This document shows, in pieces, positions 1-6,000 of a stretch of 21,427 nucleotides of DNA. Source of the DNA: Pseudomonadota bacterium (GTDB taxonomy: Bacteria > Bdellovibrionota > Bdellovibrionia > Bdellovibrionales > SG-bin7); assembly GCA_034439715.1 (NCBI GenBank), contig JAWXAY010000062.1, positions 1 through 21,427 on the forward strand, in the 5' to 3' direction. Position numbers: made by a program. Within the stretch, counting starts at the first letter, position 1, and the number at the start of each line of letters is the position of its first letter.

Positions 1-3000
1 AGTGCTTGAGATCACATCAAGTGACGTAGCAAATTGATACGTTTAGTCGGTCAAAGTCGCTGGGTAATTAGAAACGGTCAGAATCGCTGGGTAGTTACAA
101 GAGTGTCTTAAAGTTAGACAGCTGTAAATCCCAAAATTGTTAGGGTGACTAGCTAAGGTTATAAAGATCCATTCAGGACTCAATATATTCGAGCCCAAGT
201 GGCACAACTGTTGAAGTTAAGGTGTTTGAGAATATTAACGCCTATTTTTAGGCTTATAAGGCAGGTAAGAAATGAAACGATTAATTTATCTAGTATTAAT
301 AACTGCAGTCTTTGCGCTAGCCGCAGGTTGTTCTAATAAAAACAACCGTAAGAGTACTGCCGCCAGAAGCACACAACCTTATTATACTGGCAGCCAATAC
401 GGCCAACAGTTCTATAATAACTGCGGGCAGCAACAATATATGAATCCCTACAATAACCAGCAAATGAATTGTCAATACGGACAAGGTGGTTCCGCTGCAT
501 TTTACAATCAAACGGGTCAACAATACCCCATGGATTACTATGGTAACCCCTGTTTGACGGGCCAAATTGATCCCTACTCAGGCTATTGCATGGATTACTC
601 TTATTACCCAATGAGTTGGTAAGAGTTTTAGTCCCACCTGCCCGACTATTGGAATTTGACATTCCCTAAATTTTACAGATACCCTCCTCTTTTAGGAGGG
701 TTTTTTTATGTCTTCAAAATTTCTGTTCCTAGCACTGCTTCTTACTTCAAACCCCGCTTTCGCCGATGACTTTGACGCCAATAAAGTGGATGAGGGCGGC
801 CGGTATTTACACGCGGCCCTAGGTTTTGGTGCCGGTGGAATCGCACTGGGCGCTGACTTCGAAACTGGCCTCGAATCCAGCGTGGGCTGGGGTGGACTCT
901 TTCGCTATTACTCGCCCATGAATACCCTCACAAATAGTGCGCCTCGCATATTCTTTTTAGGCGGATTTATTCGACCCCATTGGAACAGAAATAAATGGGA
1001 TTTTTATTTTTCTCCAGGCATTGGATTTAGCATGGTGAAATTATCTACCGCGACAATAAGTGACAGTGAAACTCTGTTGACTCCCATTTTATCTATCGGA
1101 ACCTCATGGGCCTTTTCAAACACTATGAGTATTGGAATAGAATCGACAACAATCTTCGGCATTACCTCAGACGACTGGCGCGGGCCTATCAATCAAGATA
1201 TTATGGCAAAGCTTAAGCTGAGCTTAAATTAACTGATTTTTGCGAGTGCTTTTGTCCATTGAGAGATGGTTGAAAGCACCGACGTGTCGGCATTAGCAAA
1301 TTGAACACCGTAATGCTTTTGTGCTTCTGACCAAACTACCTTACCCTGAACGTCGACTCTATTTTTACCGTCAGGACTCGAGATTGACATCGATATGATA
1401 CCACCGTCTCTGATTAGGGCTTCGGTATCGACCTTAACACCTCCGAGAGAGATTGAACTGACTTCGCCCACAAACTCTTTTCCTTCAACATTGAGAGTGA
1501 CGGCCGACGCAATTTTAAAGCGGTCGAATTTACGCAGGTCCATAGGATTTTTCTTTTTGAGCACGATTGAAATTAAAGCCGGCACCGCAATTAATAATAG
1601 CAATAAAGTGTGCGTGACAGACCAAGGCCCGCCTCTACCACCGTCTGATTTTCCGACTAGACCACAACCCCCGCCCGCTACAGTACTGGCCACATCGCGG
1701 CTCGCCAGTGGATTTATAGATTGGTAAGAAGGATCTACAGCGGGTTCTCCCAATTGGGCCGACAAAACAGAATTGTAGGCATTAACTCGTGCCTTGGTTG
1801 AAACCTTGCCCGTTAGAACTGATTTTATTTCACCAGATCCCAAAATAAACGTTTTTATTTGATAGCCAGAAAGTGCCGAGTTCTCATGAAGCATGAGAGA
1901 GGCAATTCCAGAAATTATGGGAGTTGCCATACTTGTGCCATCAGAATATTTATAAGTGCCGCCAGGCCAGGTACTAAACACTGAAGAGCCGGGACTTCCC
2001 ATATGAACTGTCGCTGTTCCATAGTTTGAAAAATAAGCCCAGCCATCTGAAGGCGTGGTGGCTGCCGTTGAAATTATATTGGGCACATCATAAGACGCGG
2101 GATACATAGGGCTCACGTCATTATTGCCAGCCGCATTTCCCGCGGCGGCTACAAAAAGAGCCTTTTTAGTATAAGCATAAGCGATGGCATCCTTGAGAGC
2201 TTGGCTATAGCCTGATCCACCCCATGAATTATTTAATATTTTAGCACCATTGTTAACGGCATAGTAAATCGCCTGCACGGCCGCAGAAGTGGCACCGTAT
2301 CCCGAGGCATCGAGGAACTTAAGCGCCATTATTTGAATTTTAGCGGCACCAAAGGGCGTGTTAAAAATATCCTTAGTCATTCCCAAAATAGTGCCTGCCA
2401 CATGAGTTCCGTGACCATCGTCGTCTAAGGGATTATTATTGCCATAAGCAAAATTCCAACCGCGGATGTCGTCTACATAACCATTTCCGTCATCGTCAAT
2501 TCCATTACCAGCTATTTCATTGGGATTAGTCCAGATTGCTCCGCTCTGTGCAAAAGCCGGGTGATTGTAGTCCACTCCGGTATCGATAACCGCCACGATA
2601 GGCTCACTGCCTGTTGCGCCCATTAGGCTCCATGAGTCCTGGTAGCGAATAGGTGCTGTCGTTACCACACCTCCGCCCGACTGTCCTGAAACTGTTCCTT
2701 GTGCAACTGCTTCCGCATCATAAACTTCATCATGACCAGGGTTATCTATATTTTGTTTTCCGAAAAGATAATTGGGTTCAGCATATTCTACTTCTGGGTC
2801 GTTTTTCATATCAGCGATTGTCTGCTCCACACTTTGACTATTATTCACTTTAAAATGGTGCAACTTCATACTTGTCCAAGAACCTTTGAGTTGCAGCTTT
2901 CCGGCAATACCGGCTTTATTCATAAAACTAGAGGCCGATGGCGCACTCTTTTTGTCACTGCTTTTAAGTTTTATGATGATTTCACCGGGAACGAATTGCT

Positions 3001-6000
3001 GGGCTGACGAAGTCGCACACACTGACAATGTCAGAAAAAGTGTACCTACAAACAGAAAGTTACTAGCCCACATACCTACCATAAGAACTCTATCGGACAT
3101 TGGTCCAGCCCCCTTTAGCCATGGTGCAGTAAATACTTGGCATGGGTTATTTATTCCTAGTTTGATATAGTTAGAGCGTCTCACATTGAGACTGATCTCG
3201 TTTTTTGGTCTCATACTGATCCACTTTTTTTGAACGGAAATAATATGAAAATAGTCATTAGCGGTGGCACAGGATTAATTGGTCGCGCCCTTATTAGGTA
3301 TTGGCTTAAAGAAAAACACGAGATTACCGTACTCACTCGCCTAGCCGGCGGTAACAATGAGTTCGGCTCGCACTGTAAACTGTCTGAGTGGAATCCTCGA
3401 ACTCGCAAAATAGATTTAAACGTAATAAATGGCGCCGACGCCGTTATAAATTTGGCAGGAACGGGCATTGCCGATCACCGCTGGAGTAAAGAATCCAAAA
3501 AACTGATTCTTCGCTCGAGAATTGAATCGACAAGTTGCCTTGTAGAATCATTTAGCTCTGTGAGCGAAAAGCCCAAAGTATTTATTTCGGCCTCGGCGGT
3601 GGGTTTTTACGGCGCTTCTTTAAGTGAAACGTTTGACGAAAAAGGCCCCAGCGGCCAGGATTTCTTGGCCCGAGTCTGTTCCGACTGGGAGTCTGAAGCT
3701 CTAAAGGCCCGACCCTTGGGAATTCGCACTTGCCTTATGCGTACAGGCATCGTGCTCTCCAATCAGGGGGGCGCTCTAGAAAAAATGTTGCCCGTATTTC
3801 GTTTGGGTTTAGGTGGCCCATTAGGTGGAGGACAACAATGGATGAGTTGGATTCATATTTGGGATTTAGTTCAGCTATTTAATTTTTGTCTAACTGAATT
3901 TAAATCCAGCGGGCCCTTTAATGCCACAGCTCCTATTCCTGTCACTAATCTCGAGTTTAGCAAACGACTGGCGCAAGTTCTCGGCCGACCGTGTTTTATT
4001 AATACTCCGAGTTGGGTCCTGCGGTTAACTTTAGGCGAGATGGCAACTTTAATTCTTGGTGGTCAAAGAGTGTTGCCCGCTCGCTCGCGCGAATTAGGCT
4101 TTGAATTTTCATTTTCTGATCTGAACTCTGCACTTTCAAATTTGTTGAAGCCCGAAATAATACCAATTTAATGGAAGGATTGAAAATGCTGATTATTACC
4201 TCCACCATTCAAATTCCCGACTGGGAGCTTTTATTCTCATTTGCGCGCAGCTCTGGCGCCGGGGGACAAAATGTAAACAAGGTAAATAGTAAAGCCATTT
4301 TACATTGGAATCCGATGGCTAGCCCCTCTCTTCCTGTCGAAGTTAAAAATCGCTTTATGCAAAAATTTGGCAGACGCCTGAGCGGAGAGGGATTTTTAGT
4401 GCTTCAGAGCGACAGCCACCGAGATCAACCGCGAAATTCTGCCGACTGCCTCGATAAACTCCGCGCCATGATTCTCGAAGTTGCCGTGGCACCTAAGATT
4501 AGAAAGGCCACTAAGCCCTCGCGCTCGGCCAAACGAAAACGACTCGATAGTAAAAAGCGCCATTCCGAAAAAAAACAAAATCGCCGAAGGTTGGATTGAT
4601 TAACTGATACCCGTTAGTGGAAATTGTTTTTATTTAATTCCTCTAAACTTTTAGCCACAATCAAAACACTCACAAAATGCTCCGCTCGGTCAGGATCAGT
4701 AGTAAAAAGTACTCCACTGTCTATTTGTGGGCGACCCACATCTCCTATTTTTAACGGAAACTCAAGTGTCATTCTCTGCCTAAAAACTTTAAAATCCTCA
4801 AACCCCAGGCGTTTAATATCAGCCAAAGTTAAAATTAGCCATTGTGCCACTCGACGAGGCATTAAGCGTGCTTCTATTTTTGAAGTGACAGTTCCCATAT
4901 TATAACGTGGGTTAATCTCAACAATTGGCCGTATTTTAAGGTCACCCGAGGGGTCCCTGTAAACAAAGGCATCGACTCCTAAGGCACGTGGCCTAAATTC
5001 CTTCGACATTTTTTTGTTCAAATACTTTTCTATTCGCAAAAACATTTCTTCGATGAGAGGCCGCTCGCTAGTTTTTTGATTAATAAATCGCAAAGTAGGA
5101 TTGTTAAGTCCTAAATGAAATCCACCCAAGAGGGCACCACGGTATTTGCCATAAGCGTCTGTCAAAAATCGCACGAGACCCAGTTTTTTGAGTTCTCCCG
5201 ACTCGCACATTGTAAACTGAAAAGAAAAATCGAAAACCTTTTCTAACCATGGCTCTAACACGATTTTTTGACCCTTGGCAAACTGTTCGGCCAACCAAGG
5301 CTTTGTACCTTCGAAGGCATTTCCCTCAAATATTTTTTGATTTTTGCCGCTGAGACCATACTCATTTTTCAGAACAAACTTTTTAAAACCCAGTGTACGA
5401 AACTCTTCGACATGAACCTCAACCTCTGTGGCCGACGCGCAAACTCGGCCGATGGAACTACTGTCACCAAGACAACCGGCCAAATCGGTCTGTTCGGCTA
5501 AAAACTCCTGAAGACATCGCACGCCAAAGGCCTTCGAGTAAAACTCGGGTGCGAGAGACTCATTTTCAAAAAATGATGTGTTAGGTAAACCACTAAGCTG
5601 TTTTAAAACCGCATGCGAACCATGACTCCAGCCCCATGGTGCAAACGATCGAAGCCTGCGTCCAATCAGGTCCTCAGTTTTAACAAATTCTGGAATTGCT
5701 AAACCGCAGTCGCGAAGGCCTGCCAAAAACTGAGAACTTGGTTTTTCTGTCACGAGGACGGCATCATCTGTGGCTGCAAAATACATCGGCAACAGTGCGA
5801 GGTCAGTTTTTAGAGATTTAAGTATCTTGGGTGGAGAAATATTTTTATTGCCAGCTGCCAACTCTAGTTCTACGAAAGGATGAAACCAAAACACATGAGG
5901 CGCCCTTCCTTTGGACTGACTAAAAACTTTTAAATTCTCAATGTATTGAGTGTCAAATCCAATGCTTTCACGTACGACAGAGCTAAAGAGCTTTCCCTTG

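Follow-up and report, generated by a model that had tools for sequence, protein, structure and literature searches.

A membrane-anchored subtilase with a predicted cytoplasmic PilZ domain in Bdellovibrionales, a candidate single-protein relay from c-di-GMP to periplasmic proteolysis

Whether one polypeptide could carry a cytoplasmic c-di-GMP signal across the inner membrane to a protease on the other side is the question raised by a gene in the window analysed here, the whole 21,427-nucleotide stretch of contig JAWXAY010000062.1 (assembly GCA_034439715.1). A first-pass annotation had proposed that its product, a subtilase with a PilZ tail, acts as a one-protein "inside-out c-di-GMP switch", a reading that the sequence makes plausible. 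The longest open reading frame (1229-3214, minus strand) encodes 661 aa, and residue numbers refer to it except where the 623-aa numbering of the database form P0002, which begins at Met39, is indicated. P0002 is 100% identical to the encoded protein, and a ribosome-binding site (AAGGGGG) is located 8 nt upstream of the Met39 ATG at 3100 on the minus strand. This site and the 623-aa database form bear out the start at the second Met suggested earlier, and Met39 is most likely the true start, giving a protein of 623 aa. The features of the gene are as follows.

1229..3100, minus strand: S8-TM-PilZ coding sequence from the Met39 start, 623 aa plus stop (ribosome-binding site; identity with P0002)
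3002..3100, minus strand: Sec type I signal peptide, residues 39-71, predicted cleavage after SSA and before QQFVPGE
2771..3016, minus strand: fervidolysin-type N-terminal propeptide, residues 67-148 (PF22148)
1838..2611, minus strand: Peptidase S8 catalytic domain, residues 202-459, with D211, H268, S428 and the oxyanion Asn360
1661..1669, minus strand: invariant Gly-Cys-Gly (GCG), residues 516-518, in a juxtamembrane linker modelled as disordered
1559..1624, minus strand: single transmembrane (TM) helix with an invariant mid-helix Pro, residues 531-552 (hydrophobicity, AF2, alignment)
1550..1558, minus strand: KKK basic cluster at the cytoplasmic face, residues 553-555
1253..1537, minus strand: PilZ domain, beta-barrel plus C-terminal helix, residues 560-654 (Pfam, AF2, Foldseek)
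1520..1534, minus strand: RxxxR motif, R561-K-F-D-R565, 5 residues past KKK, both Arg in 116/116 relatives
1439..1456, minus strand: second PilZ motif, S587-I-S-L-G-G592, a variant of [D/N]xSxxG

The family was sampled by using residues 500-661 as the query (E<=1e-3). This returned 124 proteins, and all 120 matches listed carry both PF00082 and PF07238, so that the two-domain make-up reported earlier for 63 relatives stands and the number is superseded. Conservation was evaluated in 116 of the 120 listed relatives (560-730 aa; four partial ones were left out), in an alignment with a mean column identity of 39%. Of 102 genomes sampled from Bdellovibrionales and a sister family, 94 carry the gene, each in a single copy; none was found in 298 other genomes of Bdellovibrionota. 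With the tail as query, 92 of 401 Bdellovibrionota genomes gave one match apiece; a single one of these lies outside the gene's own order, in a sister family of the same class, and the matching open frames are 606-704 aa long (one row, 346 aa). Among the best 150 of 1.84 billion representatives, the GCG-TM-PilZ tail occurs only on S8 proteins (40 full-length and 31 colinear fragments).

All three Pfam domains named previously scored above their cut-offs: Fervidolysin_NPro-like (PF22148, residues 67-148) with E 1.7e-10 and 41.5 bits against a cut-off of 21, Peptidase_S8 (PF00082, residues 202-459) with E 1.9e-48 and 165.7 bits against a gathering score of 21.8, and PilZ (PF07238, residues 560-654) with E 4.5e-15 and 56.3 bits against 22.5. 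The catalytic D, H and S are kept in 116/116 full-length relatives, and the oxyanion Asn (N322 of P0002, Asn360 here) is invariant in 113 aligned sequences; judged from these residues, the S8 domain is intact. Its closest solved counterpart is the catalytic domain of deseasin MCP-01 (PDB 3vv3; E 2.6e-70, residues 138-448 of a 467-aa query). The best NCBIfam match was the mycosin model TIGR03921, but a mycosin identity was rejected at 109.4 bits against the equivalog cut-off of 278.75, and no T7SS context is present for the subtilase.

The N terminus, where AF2 places a helix at residues 3-27 of P0002, had been called a signal/anchor. In the relatives it ends in A-x-A followed by Q..YVPGE and is lipobox-like in only 1/116, which indicates a classical cleavable signal peptide and not an anchor. 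The Kyte-Doolittle hydrophobicity peaks at 2.39 over residues 533-551, just before KKK, and there are seven K/R in the 15 residues after the helix versus two before it. In the relatives the median is six versus one, with more after than before in 116/116. The AF2 full-length model (pLDDT 88) has a helix at 495-515 of P0002, which corresponds to the TM stretch. Hydrophobicity, charge bias and the modelled helix support the TM helix predicted at about 531-552. A TM-grade segment lies between GCG and RxxxR in 116/116 relatives, as had been claimed for a smaller set, and the gap from the TM window to RxxxR has a median of nine residues. These results support a type I topology with a signal peptide, a periplasmic propeptide and S8 domain, one TM helix and a PilZ domain that, from the single helix and the positive-inside bias, faces the cytoplasm as predicted. 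The catalytic domain is therefore outside the cytoplasmic membrane, although not extracellular as first described: because the host is diderm, this placement is periplasmic unless the domain is cleaved off and exported.

Among the genome's 13 PilZ matches this domain ranks first, and six GGDEF matches indicate that the organism makes c-di-GMP. Both Arg of RxxxR are kept in 116/116 relatives (87/116 have R immediately before the motif, where this protein has L), as are the S, G and G of the second motif, with its I in 115/116; the earlier estimate of at least 90% conservation of the catalytic and PilZ motifs is thereby confirmed. Since the ligand-binding Arg, Ser and Gly are invariant, nucleotide binding probably matters. 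The motif had been written (S/D)xSxGG; the S, G and G stand, whereas the D does not, the first position being S in 81, T in 32 and C in 3 of the 116 and never D or N, so that the likeness to the canonical motif had been overstated. In a profile alignment this position pairs with the D of DLSRSG in VCA0042, and its replacement in all 116 means that affinity or ligand may differ. T is also found at this position, together with RxxxR, in a PilZ paralogue of this genome, so that the change looks like a lineage habit and not decay. The PilZ barrel was modelled with pLDDT 74-88 in the full-length AF2 model, and a tail-only model was mediocre (pLDDT 66.8). With the latter, the top Foldseek match was c-di-GMP-bound Alg44 (4rt0; E 1.6e-4, target-normalised TM-score 0.65), followed in order by BcsA, MapZ, MotI and PlzA; the Alg44, BcsA and MapZ PilZ domains with c-di-GMP were matched at E 1.6e-4 to 1e-3 and a probability of 1.00.

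From annotations in two papers and the presence of one copy per genome, we infer that Bd2545 is the orthologue in B. bacteriovorus HD100. It is already known that this orthologue is counted with attack-phase "pilZ genes": a 2010 report places Bd2545 with the pilZ genes whose expression falls as cells leave attack phase (PMC2797640). In a proteome it is annotated as an S8 protease and covered by 13 peptides, and its log2 abundance drops from 5.02 in attack phase to 3.71 at 4 h (PMC12546842, Supplementary file 3). Bd2545 is thus enriched in attack phase in both published transcript and proteome data.

The reading that we prefer, with a probability of about one half, is that the protein is a bitopic type I inner-membrane subtilase, one polypeptide that relays cytoplasmic c-di-GMP to periplasmic proteolysis in attack phase. 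Sec export and signal-peptide cleavage would place the propeptide and a predicted-active, deseasin-like S8 domain in the predator's own periplasm, and a flexible Gly-rich linker would join S8 to one Pro-kinked TM helix. The final ~100 residues would form a cytoplasmic PilZ beta-barrel, with the RxxxR "switch" loop starting ~5-10 residues past the helix. Binding of c-di-GMP may clamp the barrel onto this loop, and the clamped barrel could alter the state of the helix and linker and so change protease activity, self-association, position or release. The cytoplasmic c-di-GMP level would in this way govern periplasmic proteolysis in the attack phase. In this scheme, the binding of the ligand, how and in which direction it is coupled to the protease, and what the protease cleaves are inferred.

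The GCG-TM-basic module offers a live alternative to the c-di-GMP switch, or a layer on it. It may be a Cys-type C-terminal sorting or processing signal, in which case the protease would be cleaved close to the membrane, with lipid possibly attached at the Cys, and then released or transferred to the surface of the cell, leaving a TM-PilZ stub with PilZ as gate or passenger. We consider this unlikely but a serious contender. The tripartite layout fits the definition of such signals (invariant-Cys signature, TM helix, basic cluster) in a preprint by Haft (10.1101/2023.06.07.544157) and in a further report (PMC11980579). In the family, the Cys and following Gly of GCG are present in 116/116 relatives and the preceding Gly in 114/116. 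Because the Cys is invariant and yet in 73/116 no other Cys occurs in the mature protein (past residue 40), a structural disulfide is not its role; the linker around it is disordered in the AF2 model (pLDDT <50 over 469-490 of P0002). Four small-genome orthologues (506-526 aa) have GCG, the Pro-containing helix and a basic end without PilZ, and stop right past the basic cluster as a C-terminal sorting tag would, whereas most members have ~106 residues beyond it (106 past KKK in the present protein). The Pro in the middle of the helix is invariant in members with PilZ and in those lacking it, and the S8 domain is similar to degradative enzymes that are secreted. However, the MYXO-CTERM model TIGR03901 does not match the gene at E<=10, nor does any NCBIfam model match the 57-aa segment at that threshold. 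C-terminal sorting signals usually mark several proteins per genome, whereas a profile of the segment finds one gene in this genome (E 3.2e-12; the next, at 0.057, is not C-terminal). A CPBP protease gene adjoins the subtilase in 1/16 loci (L123), but the single CPBP protease of the present genome is unrelated to it and is not co-distributed with the gene, being found in 14/401 genomes and in none of families f2, f3 and f7. Furthermore, Bd2545 is missing from the protease list of the HIB culture supernatant (PMC3898049, Table 2).

The four PilZ-less orthologues, together with genus g22, which has R-x5-R in place of RxxxR, indicate that the anchor module is independent of PilZ, that PilZ is dispensable in some lineages, and that PilZ control is not essential to the protease. 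The presence of the protease without PilZ in four lineages is also consistent with a tail that, with c-di-GMP or without it and with catalysis unchanged, docks or localises the protease at the invasive pole, a motility machine, a Sec/PpiD site or a similar cytoplasmic landmark; we think that this is rather improbable. The cytoplasmic tails of furin and PfSUB2, which are eukaryotic membrane subtilases, act in docking and localisation, and PilZ domains commonly act through partners, as do MapZ with CheR1 and YcgR or MotI with motors among the fold matches. Because the GCG linker is modelled as disordered, rigid allostery to the catalytic domain is hard to picture, and the flexibility so predicted would make allostery unlikely. 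A PpiD-like membrane chaperone gene is directly upstream and co-oriented in 6/16 loci and one gene off in a seventh, but this synteny is not conserved within the window's family or Bdellovibrio proper, and the invariant ligand-binding residues argue for nucleotide binding.

It is still less probable that GCG, the Pro-kinked helix and the basic cluster form a second-messenger-gated sorting signal, by which PilZ would switch the subtilase between tethered and shed or surface forms during prey attack in response to c-di-GMP or another dinucleotide such as 3',3'-cGAMP. Another dinucleotide was considered because of the family-wide change of D/N to S/T, and 3',3'-cGAMP is made by Bdellovibrio; if this were true, the signal would operate constitutively in lineages that lost PilZ. 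Very improbable is a degenerate PilZ that does not bind, or binds another nucleotide, and is a mere cytoplasmic plug or stabiliser of a housekeeping protease anchored to the membrane on the periplasmic side: the best sequence matches in solved structures are non-canonical PilZ proteins of Xanthomonas ("type IV fimbriae assembly"), matched weakly (E 0.02-0.07), the D/N position is always substituted, four lineages lost the tail or never gained it, and RxxxR is broken in g22, but Xanthomonas-type PilZ is not known to have the RxxxR and S..GG motifs that are invariant here, the top matches of the modelled fold are ligand-bound canonical domains, and the paralogous PilZ shares the substitution.

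Compared with known systems, MYXO-CTERM and JDVT-CTERM proteins resemble the subtilase in that a short Gly-rich signature with an invariant Cys is followed by a TM helix and a basic cluster. The subtilase differs from MYXO-CTERM proteins in the missing HMM match, the one substrate per genome, the absence of a co-distributed CPBP enzyme and, in most members, a PilZ domain of ~100 residues past the cluster, at which the four short orthologues end. Mycosins, furin and PfSUB2 are likewise held in the membrane by one C-terminal TM helix, and their cytoplasmic tails are short or trafficking signals and are not known to be nucleotide receptors. Deseasin MCP-01 shares the D-H-S triad but is secreted, has C-terminal P-proprotein and PKD domains and is not known to have a TM helix or PilZ. 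The LapD-LapG pair of Pseudomonas fluorescens, the job of which had been ascribed to the subtilase, is described in passages of one report as "inside-out" signalling in which cytoplasmic c-di-GMP governs a periplasmic protease (PMC10333796). That system consists of two proteins, a degenerate GGDEF-EAL receptor and a sequestered Cys protease, whereas the subtilase is tethered; a Pfam search found neither LapD-type GGDEF-EAL nor LapG-type protease domains in it, and the analogy is therefore functional and not one of homology. The cellulose synthase BcsA and Alg44, whose PilZ domains are the top fold matches of the tail, are, like the subtilase, single polypeptides that cross the inner membrane and have PilZ on the cytoplasmic side. 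BcsA has the same TM-RxxxR-barrel layout, with a C-terminal PilZ after its last TM helix; Alg44 has a cytoplasmic PilZ, one TM helix and a periplasmic domain in the reverse order, with PilZ N-terminal. In both, the RxxxR loop adjoins a TM helix, as in the subtilase. Both carry the canonical D of DxSxxG, where the subtilase family has S, T or C. In BcsA and Alg44, c-di-GMP steers an envelope process from inside, as proposed for the subtilase, their output being polysaccharide synthesis or export and that of the subtilase proteolysis.

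The S8-TM-PilZ gene lies on the minus strand and has the following features, with residues numbered on the 661-aa open frame.

1229-3214, minus strand: S8-TM-PilZ open reading frame, 661 codons
3100, minus strand: likely start of the coding sequence (Met39, 623 aa), with AAGGGGG 8 nt before Met39; the database form P0002 has 623 aa and is 100% identical
Residues 67-148: Fervidolysin_NPro-like domain (Pfam, above cut-off)
Residues 202-459: Peptidase_S8 domain (Pfam, 1.9e-48, above cut-off)
Residues 533-551, then KKK: candidate TM helix, the highest hydrophobic window (Kyte-Doolittle 2.39)
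Residues 560-654: PilZ domain (Pfam, 4.5e-15, above cut-off)

The start was taken as 3100 because of the AAGGGGG sequence, the 623-aa length of the database form and the position of the first ATG of the 661-codon frame, only ~30 nt from the divergent epimerase gene.

A search with residues 500-661 matched 124 proteins at E<=1e-3, and both PF00082 and PF07238 were present on all 120 of the matches listed. Exclusion of four partial proteins left an alignment of 116 proteins of 560-730 aa, in which the catalytic Asp, His and Ser were identical throughout, as were the Cys and following Gly of the Gly-Cys-Gly motif (GCG, residues 516-518) that precedes the TM helix. Between GCG and the RxxxR motif of the PilZ domain (residues 561-565), a TM-grade segment was found in every protein (minimum 1.65, median 2.34), with a median gap of 9 residues from the end of the hydrophobic window to RxxxR. 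The number of Lys and Arg in the 15 residues after this segment exceeded that in the 15 before it in 116/116 (medians 6 vs. 1; 7 vs. 2 around the hydrophobic peak of the window's protein). The N-termini of the relatives are classical Sec signals ending A-x-A, followed by Q..YVPGE, and only 1 of the 116 is lipobox-like; 95 passed an N-terminal hydrophobicity test, and the remainder look like mis-called starts. A further hydrophobic window within the exported part was seen in four.

A full-length AF2 model (alignment of 113 sequences) had a mean pLDDT of 88. It begins with an N-terminal helix, and the propeptide and S8 fold are modelled at pLDDT >95. In P0002 numbering, residues 469-490, which hold GCG, are disordered (pLDDT <50) and lead to a helix at 495-515, after which come a beta-barrel and terminal helix at pLDDT 74-88. 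Because of the family-wide pattern of TM segment and Lys/Arg, the Sec signals and this model, the mature protein is predicted to be type I, with the protease on the periplasmic side and PilZ on the cytoplasmic side. The first-pass annotation had noted the S8 domain, TM helix and PilZ domain in one protein, an observation that is confirmed and extended by Pfam, hydrophobicity and the 116-protein alignment, and had read it as a candidate inside-out c-di-GMP switch for an extracellular protease. The topology predicted from the 116 relatives and the AF2 model supports this interpretation in part; the word "extracellular", however, is unjustified in a diderm, as the S8 domain would be in the periplasm unless it is cut off and exported.

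The distribution was evaluated with a 153-aa query of the tail (the C-terminal GCG-TM-PilZ region), which matched 92/401 sampled Bdellovibrionota genomes, once per genome. With the window's genome left out, there were matches in 91/102 genomes of the window's order (families f1-f11) and of f12, a sister family within its class, and in 0/298 genomes of all other families of the phylum. The open frames at these matches were 606-704 aa, except for one of 346 aa and one with two in-frame TAA codons in the matched stretch. When the 11 same-order genomes lacking a tail match were re-searched using the whole protein, full-length orthologues with diverged tails were found in three (G373, G200 and G176), and therefore the PilZ form is present in 94/102. 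The orthologue in G358 is interrupted by a contig end, and in G105, G334 and G391 (1.2-2.2 Mb) only weaker S8 matches were obtained by this re-search. The other four genomes, of 1.9-2.4 Mb (G247, G172, G232 and G032, with loci L131, L133, L132 and L134, respectively), carry orthologues of 506-526 aa without PilZ, in which GCG (ACG in one) is followed by a spacer, a Pro-containing TM helix and a basic cluster, and the protein terminates directly behind these. Each of the 11 genomes has 2-5 GGDEF matches, so phyletic coupling to c-di-GMP synthesis is uninformative.

A quick ML tree was built from the exported part of 37 orthologues, with 9 S8 proteins as outgroup (another three outgroup loci were missed by the pattern and left out); in it the orthologues formed one clade with an SH-aLRT of 99. 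The four PilZ-less proteins formed a clade (84) with long branches (0.88-1.0), sister to the 33 PilZ-bearing proteins (88). We lean toward loss of PilZ followed by faster evolution, rather than ancestral absence, because the PilZ-less genomes are classed in family f3, the remaining members of which carry PilZ. A tail profile was also run against 1.84 billion representatives, and among the best 150 matches the complete GCG-TM-PilZ tail was found on S8 proteins only: 40 were full-length S8 proteins and 31 colinear fragments, and the other 79 had the PilZ part only or no BLAST match to P0002, several of them being multi-PilZ proteins with TonB_C at the C-terminal end. A search of genome contigs with an S8 pattern yielded mainly PilZ-less S8 paralogues, with loci L001-L004 alone extending into the tail.

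In the window the gene stands alone, between a convergent OMP beta-barrel gene (708-1232) and the divergent epimerase gene. In a comparison of 16 orthologous loci from 10 families, a PpiD-like gene was directly upstream and co-oriented in six (L112, L114, L115, L117, L121 and L126) and one gene off in L116, and a gene with SurA_N only was convergent in L125. The PpiD-like gene encodes SurA_N_3 and rotamase domains, with PpiD as its best NCBIfam match, below cut-off, and mreC diverges beyond it in five loci, all those whose contig extends so far. This membrane chaperone neighbour may point to a connection with envelope protein biogenesis. Three loci of the Bdellovibrio family (f2) have DUF502 upstream instead, the epimerase neighbour is found in the window and its sister genome, and a small OMP beta-barrel gene is convergent downstream in 5/16 loci in addition to the window. 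No neighbour was conserved throughout the 16 loci, which favours reading the gene as monocistronic. Rfam detected only a tRNA in the window, and no riboswitch near the S8-TM-PilZ gene.

The rest of the window contains the following features.

4171-4599, plus strand: 142-aa RF-1-domain protein (ArfB-like peptidyl-tRNA hydrolase), overlapping the epimerase stop
4614-6698: 694-aa DUF455 protein, preceding the Bat-type operon
6699-14032, minus strand: BatD / TPR / VWA / VWA / hypothetical / DUF58 / MoxR-AAA operon (Bat "aerotolerance" type)
16352-18457, plus strand: 701-aa S9 prolyl oligopeptidase, downstream of spoVG
18567-18639, plus strand: tRNA gene (Rfam, 65 bits)
20224-21372, plus strand: rve-family transposase frame, ~1.6 kb beyond the tRNA gene at the window's end; this region may be an insertion site

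The orthologue in B. bacteriovorus HD100 is, we infer, Bd2545, an identity resting on published annotations and copy number: it is called a pilZ gene in one paper and an S8 protease in another, a 2008 survey lists a single such protein in HD100, and the gene occurs once per genome, with complete genomes of the Bdellovibrio-like genus g10 placing it at ~2.4-2.6 Mb. Bd2692, suggested by accession arithmetic, was rejected because it is BspE, an S8 protease of 53 kDa that carries no additional domain. In that survey the pair "Subt-PilZ" is given once, for NP_969350.1 of B. bacteriovorus (PMC2605481), and one line of a 2020 review places Peptidase_S8 among PilZ partners (PMC7288161). Lambert et al. 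(2010) report Bd2545 as one of three "pilZ genes" whose expression dropped significantly when cells left attack phase (PMC2797640). In a 2025 predation proteome, 13 unique peptides were recorded for Bd2545 (Q6MK66), which is described there as a subtilisin-like S8 protease. Its log2 abundance was 5.02 in attack phase and 5.17, 4.45, 3.71 and 4.09 at 1, 3, 4 and 7 h, respectively, a trend opposite to that of Bd2269 and Bd2692, which are secreted proteases of the exit phase (PMC12546842). Bd2545 is not among the proteases of host-independent culture supernatant in Table 2 of PMC3898049. No functional, topological or binding study of the protein was found in the literature searched, the scope of which excluded Rotem et al. 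(2016) and Galperin and Chou (2020). Bdellovibrio is described as having 15 PilZ proteins in a small, phenotypically sharp c-di-GMP network (PMC3271064), in which the S8-TM-PilZ protein is a concrete candidate effector.

Our main reading, to which we assign a probability of about one half, is that the protein is an active subtilase of the attack-phase predator, facing the periplasm and tethered to the inner membrane. The cytoplasmic PilZ tail would sense c-di-GMP and alter the state of the protease, with a short switch loop and the one TM helix relaying the signal.

The main rival, which we consider unlikely, is that GCG, the TM helix and the basic cluster are a sorting or shedding signal. Cys-containing C-terminal sorting signals are described as tripartite and cut by CPBP-type myxosortases (Haft preprint; Guo, Haft and Wall 2025). 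The GCG Cys, the TM helix with its invariant Pro and the basic cluster follow this plan, and the four PilZ-less orthologues end just as such a C-terminal tag does. However, neither the MYXO-CTERM HMM on the genome nor NCBIfam on the 57-aa GCG-TM segment gave a match, and a GCG-TM-basic profile run against all genome ORFs of at least 70 aa found the gene itself only and no second substrate. A crude scan of the genome for C-terminal TM and basic ends picked out 71 ORFs. In two of these, of 3549 aa on contig C33 and 318 aa on C90, a CG motif (SCGS and ACGN) precedes the helix; the GCG-TM profile supported neither as a further carrier of the signal. The genome's sole CPBP gene is present in 14/401 genomes and absent from families f2, f3 and f7, and a CPBP gene adjoins the S8-PilZ gene in only 1/16 loci (L123). 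Lacking co-distribution, and being unrelated to the L123 CPBP, the genome's gene was rejected as a myxosortase-like partner. The L123 gene (12226-12816, plus strand, in genome G265) encodes a CPBP (Rce1-like) intramembrane protease, is divergent from the S8-PilZ gene and has a weak match, of 25 bits against a cut-off of 75, to MrtJ, the JDVT-CTERM protease. The sorting signal could possibly be an extra layer of the main reading, since cleavage could be what PilZ controls.

The GCG Cys precedes the hydrophobic window by 14-46 residues (median 23) and belongs to a disordered linker rich in Gly. It is the sole Cys beyond residue 40 in 73/116 proteins, so it does not pair in an intramolecular disulfide; an intermolecular disulfide giving a covalent dimer is a possibility. 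That the tail serves purely for localisation is another explanation we think improbable, and the PilZ-less orthologues are a natural experiment on what the tail contributes.

The textbook form of the second PilZ motif is [D/N]xSxxG. In the alignment of 116, the Ser and two Gly of this motif (SISLGG, residues 587-592) and both Arg of RxxxR were identical throughout, and the first position of the second motif was S in 81, T in 32, C in three, and D or N in none. The RxxxR described in the first-pass annotation is thus borne out in all 116, whereas its (S/D)xSxGG is not, the first position being S, T or C and never D. The missing D/N is a genuine departure from the PilZ canon, and S/T in its place looks like a lineage habit because a PilZ paralogue on contig C82 of the window's genome also has T, together with RxxxR. 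A tail that is a PilZ domain without ligand binding is the least probable of the alternatives, and we give it very little weight. In genus g22 (L127 in G373 and L128 in G200), R-x5-R replaces RxxxR and the second motif is a canonical-looking N-I-S-K-G-G, and on these sequences the g22 tail may be non-binding or re-tuned. The residue preceding RxxxR is Arg in 87/116 proteins and Leu in the window's protein; in work on VCA0042 L135R this position is reported to set whether the domain takes up a single c-di-GMP or an intercalated pair. The structure from that work, 3kyg, appeared among the PDB and Foldseek matches of the tail. Complex prediction with two tail copies (alignment A2) and two c-di-GMP returned "no answer" with a score of 0.00.

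As a one-copy core gene across an order of predatory bacteria, the protease-TM-PilZ chain would be a compact model for signalling through one helix. It lends itself to direct experiments in a tractable and harmless organism, and one may ask whether regulatory domains can be attached to C-terminal sorting signals of the Cys type.

The catalytic part is nearest to deseasin MCP-01 (3vv3, E 2.6e-70), followed by thermitase and subtilisins, and its top NCBIfam model is mycosin (109 bits vs. a cut-off of 279). By sequence, the matches of the tail to the PDB were weak throughout (E 0.02 or worse). With a tail-only model (pLDDT 66.8), Foldseek ranked c-di-GMP-bound PilZ domains first, led by Alg44 (4rt0, E 1.6e-4, target-normalised TM-score 0.65) and followed by 4xrn, BcsA, MapZ, MotI, PlzA, VCA0042 and YcgR. 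The closest PilZ relatives outside the family (P0197, P0200, P0209, P0211, P0216 and P0231; 755-1064 aa) carry a TonB_C domain at the C-terminus besides their two or three PilZ domains, and would be a second architecture in which PilZ is cytoplasmic and an output domain periplasmic. To our knowledge, the known case of c-di-GMP control of envelope proteolysis takes two proteins, LapD and LapG, and PilZ fused to membrane enzymes has been described in polysaccharide machines and not in proteases. Alg44 and BcsA are likewise membrane proteins with a cytoplasmic PilZ adjoining a TM helix, and therefore the principle of a single chain in which PilZ acts across the membrane is known. A protease as the output of a one-chain transmembrane PilZ is not a known arrangement; it combines two known kinds of protein, PilZ-effector fusions and membrane-anchored subtilases.
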